From IMG/VR virus record IMGVR_UViG_3300024265_000032: a stretch of 53,434 nt of DNA; one strand, written 5' to 3'. Below are positions 15,446-51,382 of the stretch, in pieces (the first letter of the stretch is position 1; each line of letters starts with the position of its first letter). Source of the DNA: a virus. Taxonomy: Duplodnaviria > Heunggongvirae > Uroviricota > Caudoviricetes. The notes under the pieces are model-generated. The model did not search any database. It was not told the DNA's origin and saw nothing but the letters and a program-made list of their open reading frames with translations. The position numbers and the translations under genes are program-made.

Positions 15446-16053
15446 ATACCGTCGATGAGACCAATATTTACCGCCTGCTTAGGTTGCATCCATGTTGTTT
15501 CCGACATTATACCGGTAAGCTTCTTTTTGGTTATTCCCATCTTTCGAGCTAATACCGCTATCTTTTTGTCGTAATCTAATCGTGTATAATCAAACATCTT
15601 TTTGTGATGCTCTAGACAACTTGCTGGATCGTGTATTGTGACAGAATGCAACATCAAAGAAGAATTCGGTGTTGCATACCTATATCCCTTTGTACCGAAA
15701 GCAGCTATCATAGCTCCCATCGAATGTGCTGTCCCTCTGACGATAGTAACAACAGGTCCGGTACATGATAACATCTGATCTATGATTGCGTAACCAGCAT
15801 AAAGACTTCCACCTGGGCTGTTGATGTACATGTAGATTGGTTCGTTCATTATCGCAAATACTTGAAGACAGCTACAGATATTAGCAGAGGCTATATCGTC
15901 GATTTCACCAACAACTAAAATTCGACGAGTACGACGAAGGAAATCTTCAACCACAGCGTTGAGGCCCAACGGAAGATTCTGGTCTGGACACTGACATTCT
16001 TCTTCTTGAGGATCGATCGGTTCCTTTTTACCTTGCAGCATGTTCTTCTCCAA
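15400..16053 (-). CDS. clpP: ClpP-family protease subunit
   Basis: YINSPGG, HSMGA (Ser), MLH (His), GLID; the catalytic Asp position appears substituted. Confidence 0.85.
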   Translation of the reverse strand: MEKNMLQGKKEPIDPQEEECQCPDQNLPLGLNAVVEDFLRRTRRILVVGEIDDIASANICSCLQVFAIMNEPIYMYINSPGGSLYAGYAIIDQMLSCTGPVVTIVRGTAHSMGAMIAAFGTKGYRYATPNSSLMLHSVTIHDPASCLEHHKKMFDYTRLDYDKKIAVLARKMGITKKKLTGIMSETTWMQPKQAVNIGLIDGIWTAEKERAVTRSFM

Positions 16054-16909
16054 AAGGATGACAACGTTCGTGTAGACATTTCAATTTGTCTTGACTAACG
16101 CACAAGTACGACTGAGTTGTGGATAAATCTTGATGTCCAAGAAGAAATTGGATCAATTCTATGTCGACTCCGCGATCCATAAGGTCCGTAGCACAACTTC
16201 TACGAAGTAAATGGGGTGTGGTGTGTTTAACACCAGCAGTATTAGATGCTGCCCTTAACATATCCCCAACACTTCTTCGAGTAATTCTCGATCCATCAAG
16301 CTTGACGAAAACAGCATCAGTGTCCGAAACGCGATCAATATTGATGTAATCGCATATCGCCTTCATACATTTTTCGGTCGTTGGAACAATTCTTTCCACA
16401 CGACCTTTGCCCATGACAAGTATGTCTCTTCGACTTGTGTTTATATCTTTCAAATCAAGGTTGCACAATTCAGACACTCGCAGTCCACTCCGATACAAGA
16501 TCAATATAATAGCGATGTCGCGGCGAATGTTAACGGCTCTAGATGCTGGTAAACGCTTTTCCACAGCGGAAACAATAGCATCCACATCATCAGACTCAAT
16601 CGCATCAGGTGTTCTCCTGTCTATACGAATAGGATCGATCATCTTATGGATATTCTTATCAAGACGACCGATACCAACCATAAAATGACACAAACAACGG
16701 ACAGACATACACTTCCGACGCACGGTGGTAGCCTTCATTCCTTGTGACTGAAGACTTCGGATAAATGTATCGATCAATCGAGATGTCAACTGTTCGTCCC
16801 CGATAAAATCAAGAAATTCTTGTACATCTCTTTTGTACGCAGAAAGCGTCTCCGTGGACAGACCAAGCTCTGTGTTGACATATCTTTCGAAGTCGAGTAT
16901 TATGTTCAA
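16028..16909 (-). CDS. XerC/XerD-like tyrosine recombinase
   Basis: T..AY..D, YRSGLRVSE (R), GKG (K), PHLLRRS (H-x-x-R), LLGH, TTQSY (Y); TTG start with GGAAGG RBS. Confidence 0.9.
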   Translation of the reverse strand: MNIILDFERYVNTELGLSTETLSAYKRDVQEFLDFIGDEQLTSRLIDTFIRSLQSQGMKATTVRRKCMSVRCLCHFMVGIGRLDKNIHKMIDPIRIDRRTPDAIESDDVDAIVSAVEKRLPASRAVNIRRDIAIILILYRSGLRVSELCNLDLKDINTSRRDILVMGKGRVERIVPTTEKCMKAICDYINIDRVSDTDAVFVKLDGSRITRRSVGDMLRAASNTAGVKHTTPHLLRRSCATDLMDRGVDIELIQFLLGHQDLSTTQSYLCVSQDKLKCLHERCHPFGEEHAAR

Positions 16910-48737: not shown

Positions 48738-48810
48738 TGGGGGCTGTGGGACTCGAACCCACGACTTGAAGGTTATGAGTCTTCTACTCTACCAACTGAG
48801 TTAAGCCCCC
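48738..48810 (-). tRNA. tRNA with CAU anticodon (elongator Met or Ile2), CCA not encoded
   Basis: GGGGGCT/AGCCCCC acceptor, ACTC/GAGT D-stem, loop CTCATAA, T-loop TTCGAGT; paired G1-C72 excludes initiator. Confidence 0.9.
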
Positions 48811-49389
48811 TCAGTCTATTCGTTCGTTCTTGTCTTCTTCACACAAATCTGCCCCACATGTACAGTTGTCGTTCATACGCAAACACTCTGGACACTGGTA
48901 TATAGGGCACGTCGGCCCCTCATTTTGGCCCCACTCGGTGACTCTCACGATTTTATCAAAACCTTCGTCGTTTTCTCCAGTTGGGGGCTTGAATCGATTT
49001 GCCATTTCTTCGATAACATGGGCAGGCACTTTTCTTTTTCTGCCAGCATTCCTTGCCAGACAGACAGACGTTGCCACATCCATCCACACGCAACTGACAG
49101 GAGCGCTACACTTCACAGCTAAGTCGATCCACTTGAGTCTACTCTTGACTGTGAGACTTGTCATGTCTATGACTACGGGCATGGATCGTTTTAGTAGAAC
49201 TTCGACAGTTGTCGAGACCATCAGATAGATCATATGTTCAGCAGATAGGTCGAAATCTTTACCTGTGTAGACCTTCCTGAATTCGTCAGCACAAATGATT
49301 ATGTGTGAGTCTCCCCACTCTTTCTTTGCGTATGTGCTTTTTCCACTACCAGGGAGACCACACAGAACGATCAGTTCTTTACCACCCAC
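48811..49389 (-). CDS. polynucleotide kinase-like P-loop protein (AAA_33)
   Basis: LCGLPGSGKSTYA, ADE.R, VVID.T......R..W, C..RN..R.R.VP..VI. Confidence 0.85.
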   Translation of the reverse strand: MGGKELIVLCGLPGSGKSTYAKKEWGDSHIIICADEFRKVYTGKDFDLSAEHMIYLMVSTTVEVLLKRSMPVVIDMTSLTVKSRLKWIDLAVKCSAPVSCVWMDVATSVCLARNAGRKRKVPAHVIEEMANRFKPPTGENDEGFDKIVRVTEWGQNEGPTCPIYQCPECLRMNDNCTCGADLCEEDKNERID

Positions 49390-49761: not shown

Positions 49762-50187
49762 TTATGAAGCTGTCATGACAAGCCATGTCCCGAACTCGTT
49801 TTCATCCCACAATCCGAGATTCGACATGGCGGTTTTGATTCTTTCCCTGACAAACTCTTCACGCACTTCTGTGTGGTTGAACCTCTTAAAACCATCCTCG
49901 TCTCCGTCGAGTTTGGTTTCGCAATGCATACCACACACAAACACGAAGTCGTCGTATTGGGATCGGATAACACCGATCCCTCCAAGCGTTTCTTTGCATG
50001 GGTCAAATTCTTTACGGTAGCCTGTTTCTTCTACCCATATTTCTTCCCCACACTGCGAACAATACTCAGCATCGCTTGTTTCGCCTGGGTGAACGTGGTC
50101 GCAACCCCTTATCATTTCTCTGGTGATAATTGCCGATTTTGGTAGTCTCAGACCAACGATCACATGTGCATAGTATGTTGTACTCAT
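49762..50187 (-). CDS. hypothetical protein
   Basis: 141 aa, GGGA RBS, C.H...CSQCG. Confidence 0.6.
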   Translation of the reverse strand: MSTTYYAHVIVGLRLPKSAIITREMIRGCDHVHPGETSDAEYCSQCGEEIWVEETGYRKEFDPCKETLGGIGVIRSQYDDFVFVCGMHCETKLDGDEDGFKRFNHTEVREEFVRERIKTAMSNLGLWDENEFGTWLVMTAS

Positions 50188-50310
50188 ATTTTCCCTTTCT
50201 TATCCAAGCCGAAAGCCCACCCTAGTCGGCAATGACTACATTGGCCATGGATCAGATGGCTGTAGTCCCCGTCACATACGTTTGCGACCCTCATCATTTC
50301 AGTAGTGTAT

Positions 50311-50404
50311 CTCGCAGGATGGGATTCGAACCCACAACCAACCCTTCCGGGTTATTACAGATAGGAATGACCTACCTAAGCTCTTCCAATTGAGCTACAT
50401 GCGA
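50311..50404 (-). ncRNA. aberrant tRNA-like element 1 (94 nt, long variable arm, non-canonical anticodon arm)
   Basis: Acceptor TCGCATG/CCTGCGA (one mismatch), D-arm GCTC/GAGC, T-arm GTGGG-TTCGAAT-CCCAT; 44-nt middle with two hairpins. Confidence 0.7.
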
Positions 50405-50409
50405 TCTTT

Positions 50410-50501
50410 GACAGCGTAACAAGAAATCCCCGACTCATAACGTACACTAGCACCATTAGGCATACGGGTAATACGCATCAGGGACTTCTTATCACGCTGT
50501 C
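50410..50501 (-). ncRNA. structured RNA element A (21-bp closing stem)
   Basis: GACAGCGTGATAAGAAGTCCC pairs with GGGATTTCTTGTTACGCTGTC; all three mismatches are G-U pairs on the minus strand. Confidence 0.65.
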
Positions 50502-50596
50502 GGGTGTGGAAGACTTATAGCTTCGGACTTTATGCATACCCCGATACTTTGGGACCGGCTTCGTTCGACCACGTTTTACCCCGACAACGCGACAAA

Positions 50597-50677
50597 GGTT
50601 ACGGGTGGGATTCGAACCCACGACCTTCTGGCCCCAAAGGGGTCTCGCAGACGCTCTACCACTGAGCTACCGCTTCC
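50597..50677 (-). ncRNA. aberrant tRNA-like element 2 (Pro-UGG-like loop with 8-nt insertion, degenerate acceptor)
   Basis: Intact D-arm and T-arm; anticodon arm TCTGCGAGACCCCTTTGGGGCCAGA (25 nt rather than 17). Confidence 0.7.
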
Positions 50678-50682
50678 ATCAG

Positions 50683-50773
50683 ATTCGTGGTGGCTTCGCC
50701 CTACACTTTCCCTAGTCTTCGGGACGCCTGTAGCGGTTGATCGAAGCTCTTATCCAAGGGACGGACCACGAAT
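50683..50773 (-). ncRNA. structured RNA element B (9-bp closing stem, multibranch)
   Basis: ATTCGTGGT/ACCACGAAT enclosing CTACA/TGTAG + TCCC/GGGA and GGC-GAA-GCC hairpins. Confidence 0.5.
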
Positions 50774-50833
50774 TATCTACCAAACGATATAGGGATCGTT
50801 TCCCAATCGTCTGAAGTTTCCATTTTGTCTTCT

Positions 50834-51382
50834 TTAGGCTGCAATAGACCTTTTCCATCCACGGGCCGCACCACGATTACGATTTCTGGCACGCAGACTT
50901 TTTTTCTCGACAGCTTTCTTCTCAGCTACCACCATCGGATCACGATTGGCATCAGACACCTCTACACGAGACGCCAAACTCCATTTACTACCATCAACCC
51001 TCCGCGCCCTTCTATTAGTCGATGCTCTCGCCGACTTGTTCCGAACCAACGTGTGCCTCTTCTTCTTGAATTGTTCGTCTAGTCCGATTTCCATCTTGAC
51101 TTCGTCGACCTGCCCTTTACGTCTTGTCGAGAACCCCATGGTTCCATCGCCGCATTTGACCTTTTGCCACAAAGGTCCGCTGAATTTCTTGCCGCCCCTG
51201 ACCGACACACAATACTCGGACCGAGCGAACAGATTGTCTTCCGCCCACTGGCGAGAGTCACCCTCAAGTCGATTGAATCCATACCCTTCCGCTCCAGTTT
51301 TGTTTGGTTTCTTTTGGTCTTTGCAACATGAACAAGGTTTCATGATCAAATTCCTTACAGAGGTTTCACAACAACCCACCAC
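50834..51382 (-). CDS. very basic hypothetical protein
   Basis: Arg/Lys-rich; probable start MKPCSCC. Confidence 0.5.
   Translation of the reverse strand: MVGCCETSVRNLIMKPCSCCKDQKKPNKTGAEGYGFNRLEGDSRQWAEDNLFARSEYCVSVRGGKKFSGPLWQKVKCGDGTMGFSTRRKGQVDEVKMEIGLDEQFKKKRHTLVRNKSARASTNRRARRVDGSKWSLASRVEVSDANRDPMVVAEKKAVEKKSLRARNRNRGAARGWKRSIAA

Follow-up and report, generated by a model that had tools for sequence, protein, structure and literature searches.

In an uncultured marine-sediment phage, two genes are separated by 646 bases that, read on the minus strand, are best explained as an array of RNA modules, each independent of the others and closed by its own stem, which would be transcribed together within a series of minus-strand genes. 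This gap lies near one end of a stretch of 53,434 nucleotides, referred to below as the window. The observations behind this explanation are the structures themselves, their pattern of conservation and the gain and loss of whole modules. The comparative set consisted of nine related metagenome contigs, and the relatives were located by using the downstream 141-aa gene as the query. Read 5' to 3' along the minus strand, the features are as follows.

50834–51382, minus strand: upstream gene, 182 aa with a basic C-terminus (ORF list).
50684–50772, minus strand: element B, an 89-nt branched RNA with the 8-bp closing stem UUCGUGGU/ACCACGAA.
50597–50676, minus strand: tRNA-like T2, Rfam tRNA score 44.5 bits, with normal D and T arms.
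50494–50592 (core 50499–50585), minus strand: element C, a structured RNA that is conserved and closed by a stem of 10 bp.
50410–50501, minus strand: element A, a 92-nt hairpin that is almost perfectly paired; its lower stem measures ∼31 bp, and several of the pairs are G-U.
50311–50404, minus strand: tRNA-like T1, 94 nt, Rfam tRNA score 37.5 bits, with normal D and T arms.
50188–50310, minus strand: structured leader, comprising a conserved AUGAUGAG box (50290–50297), three hairpins and the ribosome-binding region of the next gene.
50271–50288, 50234–50267 and 50208–50230, minus strand: the leader hairpins, kept in seven loci.
49762–50187, minus strand: downstream gene, 141 aa and Cys-rich (ORF list).

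Every feature picked out by an earlier sequence-only reading of this DNA was recovered on the minus strand where that reading had placed it. Folding energies compared with dinucleotide shuffles, a control proposed there, gave z = −9.8 for A, −4.0 for T1, −2.3 for B, −2.1 for C and −3.5 for the whole 646 nt, which thus folds beyond its shuffles. Conservation and covariation among the related contigs, also proposed there, were found for the T2 scaffold, C and the leader hairpins, all of which covary. For the upstream 182-aa protein no Pfam or PHROG family was found, and a family search with the downstream 141-aa protein gave no match. Comparison of the locus and its neighbours with GenBank phages revealed no DNA or protein match, and neither flanking protein had a relative in IMG/VR. 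Homologues of the upstream gene precede the array in the relatives, with 81–85% nucleotide identity in L037 and L040–L043; they are also present in two complete relatives, G001 and G002, in which the array is absent downstream, and this absence marks the array as accessory. A simple scan of the interval for a sigma-70 promoter and a terminator gave no match, and there was no RNA run among the public sequencing runs listed with the locus.

Element B is 98–100% identical in eight loci (the window, L037, L039–L043 and L066), and the borders of this conservation fall exactly at the closing stem at both ends. In the same comparison tRNA-Met is 81% identical and genes and ORFs are 78–86% identical, which argues that B is under stronger selection than a true tRNA. 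Because B is too conserved to covary, covariation is nil and its fold is predicted from energy (minimum free energy −32.8 kcal/mol, with the z-score given above); three of its four substitutions are of the G-U type and fold-compatible, the strand preference being judged by eye. In every locus B begins 0–12 nt past a small-ORF stop codon, and it is always followed, after 6–9 nt, by a module with an acceptor-like closing stem, namely T2 in the window, L039 and L042, module D in L040, L043 and L066, and module E in L037. B is likely to be the main cargo of the array. Searches with models found no second copy of B or of C in the genome, where B is single-copy, and no match in five related IMG/VR records, two of which are complete genomes (168 and 180 kb), or around distant homologues of the 141-aa and 50-aa proteins. 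No Rfam match was found for B, and its exact patterns gave no match in IMG/VR. Base pairing between B and C was considered and rejected: they have 7 nt of complementarity, but the duplex energies of the whole RNAs are no better than those of shuffles and there is no compensation in L037.

The presence of two tRNA-like elements, claimed in the sequence-only reading, was borne out, as both T2 and T1 exceed the gathering score of the Rfam tRNA family (RF00005; 29 bits); no match to GOLLD or ROOL was found in the Rfam search. The T2 orthologues in six relatives score 40–48 bits, and the true tRNAs of the phage group score 60–75 bits (63–75 bits for those in these loci). In the window, the T2 anticodon arm is replaced by an extended stem with a 3-nt loop, and the acceptor carries tandem A.A mismatches at 2:71 and 3:70. 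These two pairs are purine-purine in all six orthologues, so that the 7-bp acceptor of Watson–Crick and G-U pairs is not formed. The acceptor, D and T stems together are 89% paired, with seven pairs changed on both sides among six orthologues and two paralogues, and none of 500 shuffles equalled the observed covariation; pair 4:69 alone occurs as G.U, G-C, C-G, A-U and U-A. The D and T stems are 100% paired, and the D-loop GG and the T-loop UUCGAAU are invariant. The anticodon arm takes six forms in seven loci, from 3–5-nt loops to 24–61-nt inserts, and is well paired throughout. Such freedom of the anticodon arm on a conserved scaffold is the pattern expected if only the elbow and acceptor matter. 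T2 also has an acceptor stacked on a canonical T arm and a D-loop/T-loop elbow, independent of the anticodon, as is characteristic of t-elements and of the mascRNA type. ARAGORN without relaxed or intron settings called T1 and left T2 uncalled. In its intron mode it proposed an 8-nt intron in T2 (Pro-UGG); this was rejected, since removal of the inserts from the orthologues leaves no common mature arm. Exact-pattern scans of IMG/VR for T2 features gave no match.

T1 has an anticodon stem of 8 bp with a 5-nt loop, or, in an alternative and irregular CAU reading, U37 and a 3-nt junction; ARAGORN reports it as 'Asp GTC' with G33. It has a long variable arm capped by GGAA, a G discriminator and one U.C mismatch in the acceptor. 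Its paralogue is an odd 93-nt tRNA (genome 116608–116700) with 80% mean column identity, including a covarying variable-arm stem. Kinship with class II tRNAs was rejected, as a search with a pattern based on the variable arm of T1 returned only ordinary tRNA-Ser and tRNA-Leu. Neither T2 nor T1 has a 5-bp anticodon stem that carries a loop of seven nucleotides with U33 and a purine at position 37; with loops of 3 and 5 nt, respectively, they have no usable anticodon loop and therefore cannot decode.

Element C occupies the stretch 50494–50592, which had been passed over as a linker and is in fact a conserved structured RNA with covariation. RNAalifold gave 22 pairs, five of which have changes on both sides; 96% of cells are paired, compared with 32–48% when the partner is slid, and none of 500 shuffles equalled the covariation score. 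In relatives, C lies between a 50-aa ORF and a terminator-like hairpin. Element A overlaps the closing stem of C by 3 nt. Its stem consists of 25 consecutive pairs (G-U pairs included), a bulge and six further pairs, and the strand asymmetry of its G-U pairs, to which the first analysis had drawn attention, is clear from the energies (−50.1 kcal/mol on the minus strand and −25.7 kcal/mol on the plus strand). A diverged copy of A occurs on a contig from run X8; its stem has five substitutions, all of which preserve the pairing and one of which is a double change. A is absent from L037, L039, L040, L042, L043 and L066. With about two turns or more of uninterrupted double-stranded RNA, A resembles RNase III substrates of the T7 early-region type, and its predicted fold makes it a candidate double-strand-RNA processing site or 3'-end cap. 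In the leader, 97% of cells in the hairpins are paired, compared with 22–46% when the partner is slid, with two double changes in hairpin 1; the two hairpins that had already been noticed, at 50234–50267 and 50271–50288, are among those kept. The leader is present in L034–L037, L039, L040, L042, L043 and L066 and precedes the first gene of the next block, whatever that gene is. A recurrent leader or promoter family was excluded, as no second copy of the AUGAUGAG box with its hairpins occurs in the genome.

Comparison of the relatives shows how freely these units are exchanged. A 50-aa Cys-rich ORF lies between T2 and C in L037, L039, L040, L042, L043 and L066 and is cleanly absent from the window, where B, T2 and C are intact; the earlier statement that the interval holds no credible ORF is thus correct for the window and fails for these six relatives. 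Modules D or E are placed between B and T2 in some relatives, and the slot of A and T1 is taken by a terminator-like hairpin or a small ORF; in four relatives the slot is occupied by a GC-rich hairpin (−27 to −30 kcal/mol) with a short U/A-rich tail behind it. Nested or truncated tRNA-like pieces occur as a remnant of D in L037 and a nested element in L039, extra T-arm-like hairpins occur in module E of L037 and in the insert of L039, and the modules have the joints GACAGCG/CGCUGUC in common. To judge from these comparisons, the array is modular and not one large RNA. The proposal of two repeated units (B with T2 and A with T1) was not sustained: B and A have a layout in common, that of a closed stem, a short spacer and a tRNA-like element, but they are without similarity in sequence or fold. 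Of the 5-nt spacers described for both, that between A and T1 is indeed 5 nt, whereas that between B and T2 is 7 nt.

RNase P and RNase Z recognize the elbow formed by the acceptor, T arm and D arm. In T2 and T1 of the window, and in modules D and E of relatives, the anticodon arm is closed up or has been replaced; these elements are non-decoding and yet keep the elbow, which points to processing handles. Our tentative preference, to which we give somewhat less than an even chance, is that the tRNA-shaped elements would be RNase P/Z handles and that B and C would be their cargo. That the array is transcribed as a single precursor and cut by RNase P/Z is our inference from the arrangement, as is whatever function B and C may have. 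An RNase P-type cut at the 5' end of T2, 7 nt past B, would leave an upstream RNA ending in folded B, and a cut at the 5' end of T1, 5 nt past A, would leave an RNA ending in the long hairpin A, which could cap the 3' end or offer a site to a double-strand-RNA nuclease. A cut 3' of T2 would free C. B and C might then be functional cargo, whether as stable small RNAs in free form or as ends that protect the flanking messages, and with A and T1 in the slot of the terminator hairpin a 3' end would be generated by processing and not by termination. The earlier suggestion of tRNA-like punctuation that releases ∼90-nt RNAs appears to fit the comparative data, in which the T2 elbow and acceptor covary, the anticodon arm is free and B is followed within 6–9 nt by an acceptor-like stem.

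Several observations weigh against processing handles. The purine-purine mismatches lie beside the presumed RNase P site and could weaken cleavage, and the fact that 2:71 and 3:70 are so strictly conserved is a hint that a different, specific ligand is involved. Furthermore, RNase P and RNase Z need no more than a minihelix, so that the stable anticodon-arm helices and the extra T-arm hairpins are left unexplained by processing alone. The family of odd tRNAs to which T1 belongs may have a job of its own; B is without covariation, and the array is accessory.

The use of tRNA-like elements as processing marks is known in organelles, in a few long RNAs of mammals and in a herpesvirus. In plant mitochondria, t-elements guide RNase P/Z to cleave at the ends of mRNAs (Forner et al., 2007; PMC1920247). 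They resemble the array in their non-canonical cloverleaf shape, in which the T arm is conserved, and in lying next to other RNAs within long transcripts; cuts by RNase P and RNase Z at the ends of the element form the 5' or 3' end of the neighbouring RNA, with a short spacer, which in t-elements is trimmed, between that end and the element (PMC1920247). However, t-elements act on organelle mRNAs and their cleavage has been mapped, whereas the array belongs to a phage and is described here from its sequence, its neighbours are structured non-coding RNAs and T2 has conserved purine-purine acceptor mismatches. The 3' end of MALAT1 is likewise made by RNase P at the tRNA-like mascRNA, beside a stabilizing structure, and MALAT1 and MEN-beta have the order of the array, with a protective structure, a few nucleotides and a tRNA-like element with a stunted anticodon arm (PMC8457004). 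In these RNAs RNase P cleavage replaces termination in forming a stable 3' end, and in the window A and T1 fill the slot of the relatives' terminator-like hairpin. However, MALAT1 and MEN-beta are eukaryotic, nuclear and protected by a triple helix, of which there is no sign here, B and A being predicted to form ordinary stems and junctions.

In T4, the stable RNAs C and D sit within the tRNA gene cluster and mature with its tRNAs. They are small phage RNAs whose function is still unknown (PMC9697503). Their neighbours are true decoding tRNAs, unlike those in the array, which is accessory in its phage group; this comparison is one of descriptions. RNase III sites are found between T7 early genes and in the closing stems of rRNA operons, the T7 sites being shorter and having a characteristic internal loop. 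Element A, known from its predicted fold, is like the T7 sites in being a long, near-perfect double-stranded hairpin between transcription units. YrlA (RF02553) has a tRNA-like T arm, as has T2, and ends at the anticodon-stem side, whereas T2 ends at the acceptor. It was rejected as a candidate, with a weak match over 50532–50646 (19.7 bits against a threshold of 69) and no TROVE match in the 119.6-kb record, although control genomes matched. A retron or other reverse-transcriptase-linked non-coding RNA was also set aside, as the record (∼72% complete) has no RVT_1 match.

It is possible, if on balance unlikely, that the tRNA-shaped RNAs are themselves the effectors, as non-decoding mimics that sequester or divert a host factor with affinity for the elbow or acceptor of tRNAs (for example, a tRNA-cutting or tRNA-modifying defence toxin, or T-arm-binding enzymes), with B and C as unrelated companion small RNAs. 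A conserved scaffold whose anticodon arm changes fast and is still well paired in every phage would suit such a role, as would the accumulation of extra T-arm-like hairpins (module E of L037 and the insert of L039) and the strict purine pairs at 2:71 and 3:70, which are expected of a specific recognition or anti-aminoacylation feature. The phage also carries RNA repair and replacement genes, with a polynucleotide-kinase-like gene 1 kb away, its own tmRNA and several tRNAs. A GUC triplet is kept in a closed 5-nt loop in L042, L043, L066 and a paralogue at genome 60303–60373, but is wholly lost from T2 of the window. Mimicry would also leave the ultraconservation of B and its fixed place just upstream unexplained, and the array is missing from complete relatives.

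Distinctly unlikely, in our assessment, is that B, C, A and the leader hairpins are cis-acting UTR elements of the flanking small genes (stability caps, translational operators or processing sites) and that the tRNA-likes are incidental tRNA-derived spacers. The positions would agree with this, with B close behind a small-ORF stop codon in every locus, C between the 50-aa ORF and the terminator-like hairpin in relatives and the leader always ahead of the first gene of the next block; in addition, B and the ribosome-binding region of the window have in common the 11-nt string CUUGGAUAAGA, read directly from the sequences. However, the window keeps B, T2 and C intact without the 50-aa ORF, 100% identity over 89 nt far exceeds what a stability hairpin needs and the covariation of the T2 scaffold argues that T2 is selected and not incidental.

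It is improbable that the interval, as part of a hypervariable region, is a functionless graveyard of tRNA genes in decay and of scars left by recombination. The appearance and loss of modules between close relatives, the nested and truncated tRNA-like pieces, the absence of the array from G001 and G002 and the common joints, which suggest recombination, all point that way; however, pseudogene decay would alter the D and T arms and break stems, whereas the scaffolds covary, B is invariant, C and the leader covary and the pairing of A survives five substitutions. Still less probable is conservation at the DNA level, with B or T2 as the site of a DNA-binding or recombination protein, such as an attachment site that corresponds to a tRNA gene of the host. 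The conservation of B extends to the single base and stops sharply at an inverted repeat, and a tyrosine recombinase is encoded (window ∼16028–16909), but this sole tyrosine recombinase lies at a distance of 34 kb, only one half of a tRNA is retained in attachment sites whereas in T2 the two acceptor strands (5' and 3') covary, most substitutions in B are fold-compatible and two exact 20–21-mers of B are absent from the 185,579 species genomes of GTDB. The other proposal of the sequence-only reading, that the interval forms one large ornate ncRNA comparable to GOLLD or ROOL, is hardly credible despite the z-score of the whole interval, because no large RNA in Rfam matches (E up to 10), every module closes on itself and the gain, loss and swapping of whole modules between close relatives, even with a protein-coding cassette between T2 and C, do not fit a single integrated fold.

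Processing handles with B and C as cargo thus remain our preferred explanation. The array is limited to one narrow group of uncultured marine-sediment phages, seen so far through their sequences, and no comparable phage example was found. Its interest lies in a selection that keeps the tRNA elbow and acceptor and frees the anticodon arm, a natural counterpart of the engineered tRNA scaffold, in the strictly conserved tandem purine-purine acceptor pairs and in a companion 89-nt RNA that is held more strictly than a real tRNA and has no Rfam family. In engineered tRNA scaffolds, used for recombinant RNA in E. coli (Ponchon and Dardel; PMC3753655), foreign RNA takes the place of the anticodon arm and the chassis supplies folding, processing and stability. 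T2 of L037, T2 of L039 and module D resemble natural versions, with inserts of 24, 61 and ∼95 nt; the method is man-made, and the natural inserts could be cargo or neutral filler. On a speculative view, to which we attach a low probability, this phage lineage would use natural tRNA scaffolds, together with the ultraconserved 89-nt B as a new class of RNA, as an RNA counter-defence or host-takeover module, which may for instance act as a decoy or sponge that captures a tRNA-binding defence factor of the host. In such scaffolds the closed anticodon arm may prevent decoding, the tandem purine-purine acceptor may prevent charging and the position of the anticodon arm may carry interchangeable RNA cargo. 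Should B and C turn out to be stable small RNAs, they would lengthen the short list of known phage-encoded non-coding RNAs and would provide a handle on the organization of non-coding transcripts in large phages.

The window spans bases 40-53473 within an IMG/VR virus record of 119.6 kb (∼72% complete). Besides several tRNAs and a tmRNA, the phage has genes for ribonucleotide reductase, a RecA-like protein and a BrxL-like protease. At window ∼16028-16909 (minus strand) it also encodes a tyrosine recombinase (Phage_integrase, 137 bits), although it is a large phage of otherwise lytic appearance. All genes close to the locus are carried by the minus strand, and neither of the genes flanking it matched a known family. 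The features of the locus are as follows, in window coordinates.

50834-51382, minus: 182-aa gene, upstream border of the interval 50188-50833
50684-50772, minus: B, branched RNA
50597-50676, minus: T2, tRNA-like
50494-50592, minus: C, structured RNA
50410-50501, minus: A, 92-nt near-perfect hairpin
50311-50404, minus: T1, tRNA-like
50208-50288, minus: leader, three hairpins
49762-50187, minus: 141-aa gene, downstream border of the interval

The coordinates proposed in the sequence-only reading were all borne out by Rfam, ARAGORN and folding. T2 and T1 matched tRNA in Rfam with 44.5 and 37.5 bits, respectively, and nothing else in the interval was significant (YrlA reached 19.7 bits, the threshold being 69). 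ARAGORN assigned 'Asp GTC' to T1, which has G33 and 24 nt in its variable region; T2 was called in intron or relaxed mode only. The pairing of A was strand-specific, as had been claimed (minus, -50.1 kcal/mol, z -9.8; plus, -25.7 kcal/mol), and the z-scores of T1, B and C, the last of which had been taken for a linker, were -4.0, -2.3 and -2.1. The proposal that B and A are repeated units failed, as they have in common only stem closure and an adjacent tRNA-like element.

A search of GenBank phages and IMG/VR returned no relative at the locus. Two routes led to related contigs (L034-L043, L065 and L066), namely homology to the 141-aa gene product and a search of JGI metagenomes for an exact 23-mer of B. 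At the DNA level, the genes on these contigs share 78-86% identity with the window. Block mapping gave the array order as a small ORF, B, an optional module D or E, T2, a 50-aa ORF, C, a variable slot, the conserved three-hairpin leader and the next genes. The 50-aa Cys-rich ORF is present in all relatives with T2 and C (L037, L039, L040, L042, L043 and L066) and is cleanly missing from the window; its distant homologues (55-65% identity) lie among ordinary rows of phage genes that have no such RNA array. An example is as follows.

L042:449-601, minus: 50-aa four-cysteine ORF (zinc-ribbon-like) in the T2-C gap, with its own ribosome-binding site

A and T1 occupy the variable slot in the window; its occupant in L037 is a small ORF of membrane type, and in L039, L040, L042, L043 and L066 it is a GC-rich terminator-like hairpin (-27 to -30 kcal/mol, z -3.7 to -5.4). 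In metagenome contigs from four runs, B was identical or nearly identical in all four, and D-type and E-type neighbours of B were seen again. B and C were not found in two complete relatives (168 and 180 kb, RecA 76-81% identical), in one of which the 182-aa homologue runs directly into the next gene; it follows that the array is an accessory feature, limited to a narrow subgroup.

B is an 89-nt element, single-copy in the genome, and the borders of its conserved stretch coincide exactly with its 8-bp closing stem. Its identity across eight loci is 98-100%, compared with 81% for the true tRNA-Met, 80-84% for C and 91-100% for the T2 halves. Just four sites vary in B, too few for a covariation analysis: two show G-U-type changes compatible with the predicted fold, one is a loop site and one breaks a predicted pair, where an alternative register fits. 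So strong a constraint suggests a conserved partner that contacts B along most of its length. B has no Rfam match, and its exact 20-21-mers were not found in species genomes. The TAA of a 39-aa ORF (50773-50892, minus) directly abuts B, and the last codons of this ORF are homologous to the C-termini of longer small ORFs in relatives, which stop 0-12 nt upstream of B; thus, B always directly follows a stop codon, the frame not being fixed. On the 3' side, the acceptor-like closing stem of the next module always lies 6-9 nt away. The apical loop of B (GAAGACU, 50714-50720) is perfectly complementary to an invariant AGUCUUC in C (50509-50515, minus); the whole-RNA duplex test of this pairing was not significant and L037 showed no compensation. 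Strings similar to GAAGAC and AAGUC also occur in module D.

Both sides have changed in five of the 22 predicted pairs of C, with 96% of cells paired and a covariation score reached by none of 500 shuffles. The leader hairpins are 97% paired across seven loci, with two double changes, and several of their pairs are G-U in most sequences. By our reading these pairs would be mismatches on the opposite strand, so that selection would act on the minus-strand RNA.

Covariation of T2 was measured on six orthologues together with two paralogues. Pairing in the acceptor, D and T stems reached 89%, against 36-48% with a slid partner, and both-side pair changes numbered seven, matched in 0/500 shuffles; at 4:69 alone, five types of pair occur. 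In all orthologues 2:71 and 3:70 are A.A, G.A or A.G, so the non-Watson-Crick character of these two pairs is conserved. A good helix is always present in the anticodon arm, its form differing in nearly every phage.

Window: 3-nt loop on a stem
L042, L043 and L066: 5-bp stem and 5-nt loop with GUC, the same arm as in the paralogue at genome 60303-60373
L040: tetraloop on a 6-bp stem
L037: extra hairpin capped by a GNRA tetraloop (GUAA)
L039: 61-nt insert, itself tRNA-like

Selection on T2 keeps the acceptor/T/D elbow and ignores the anticodon. An intron is unlikely, because the arms share no common mature form once the inserts are removed. The paralogue at genome 60303-60373 (L046:204-274, minus; outside the window) is a tRNA-Asp-like gene of 71 nt, scoring 45.7 bits in Rfam, with A33 and the closed anticodon arm UCCCC-AGUCG-GGGGA of the L043 orthologue; the ∼230 nt upstream of it appear to hold no convincing gene. 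Two further tRNA-derived modules occur in relatives.

L040:683-826, L043:2546-2686 (minus) and L066:145-285: module D, 141-144-nt closed-stem RNA
L037:876-981: module E, closed by GACAGCG/CGCUGUC

At its two ends D looks like a tRNA split into a 5' and a 3' part by a ∼95-nt insert, and in a remnant (L037:982-1004) the closing stem alone persists as a short hairpin. E shares its closing stem with A of the window and contains a pair of T-arm-like hairpins (GGUUCGAAUCC); of these, the 3' hairpin stacks on the closing stem as in an acceptor/T-arm minihelix. None of the T2 forms, D or E is capable of decoding.

T1 aligns with an odd 93-nt tRNA (genome 116608-116700) at 80% mean column identity, and the alignment takes in a TAGG/CCTA stem as well as a variable-arm stem that covaries. 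T1 is therefore a second member of the family of that odd tRNA, the copy here adjoining A. Upstream of the tRNA cluster that contains the odd tRNA, and outside the window, is the tmRNA (L047:176-526, genome 113875-114225), which scores 137 bits in Rfam and has the tag GESQFRMAA. T1 starts 5 nt after A, in the slot that elsewhere holds the terminator-like hairpin. One contig from run X8, of low depth so that single differences could be errors, carries a diverged A joined to C, with pairing kept at 5/5 stem substitutions (U-A to C-G, two to or from G-U in adjacent pairs, and C-G to U.G) and a double change from G-C to A-U in the closing stem of C.

A polynucleotide-kinase-like P-loop kinase (AAA_33/KTI12, PHROG 505; 48738-49389, minus) is encoded 1 kb downstream of the locus. 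The end of this gene is the exact start of a tRNA-Met, a pairing also found in L034-L036, L043 and L065, and the two seem to belong to a set for repairing and replacing RNA.

In the most economical reading, which we favour tentatively, the tRNA-shaped modules would serve as processing handles that mark cuts in a polycistronic transcript, after which structured ends would remain on the neighbouring RNAs. The acceptor/T/D elbow is recognized by RNase P and RNase Z (see also PMC4919913), and parallels are found in plant-mitochondrial t-elements (PMC1920247) and the MALAT1-mascRNA junction (PMC8457004); among phages, companion RNAs without an explanation have a precedent in the stable RNAs C and D of T4 (PMC9697503). 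The earlier suggestion of tRNA-like punctuation releasing ∼90-nt RNAs fits the selected elbow and ignored anticodon of T2. Processing handles leave three features unexplained, namely the conservation of the purine-purine acceptor pairs, the maintenance of the anticodon-arm helices and the extra T-arm hairpins. These features fit better with the main rival, in which tRNA mimics act as effectors or decoys in a conflict over host tRNAs; this accords with the kinase, tmRNA and tRNA genes of the phage, and we nevertheless consider it rather unlikely. That B and C act in cis as untranslated-region elements is less probable again. Non-functional tRNA-gene decay with recombination scars is improbable, its simple form apparently being ruled out by the conservation pattern, and a DNA-level site is more doubtful still. 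One large ornate RNA, the other earlier suggestion, is the least credible, since the gain and loss of modules among relatives rules out an integrated fold.

All of these conclusions derive from comparative sequence analysis of one narrow group of uncultured phages. As a principle, tRNA-like punctuation is already known from other systems. On the present comparison, B and C, with no Rfam match, would be new RNA families, and T2 would represent a tRNA-like element of a new kind, in which the anticodon arm is closed or bears cargo and the acceptor stem has tandem purine-purine pairs.
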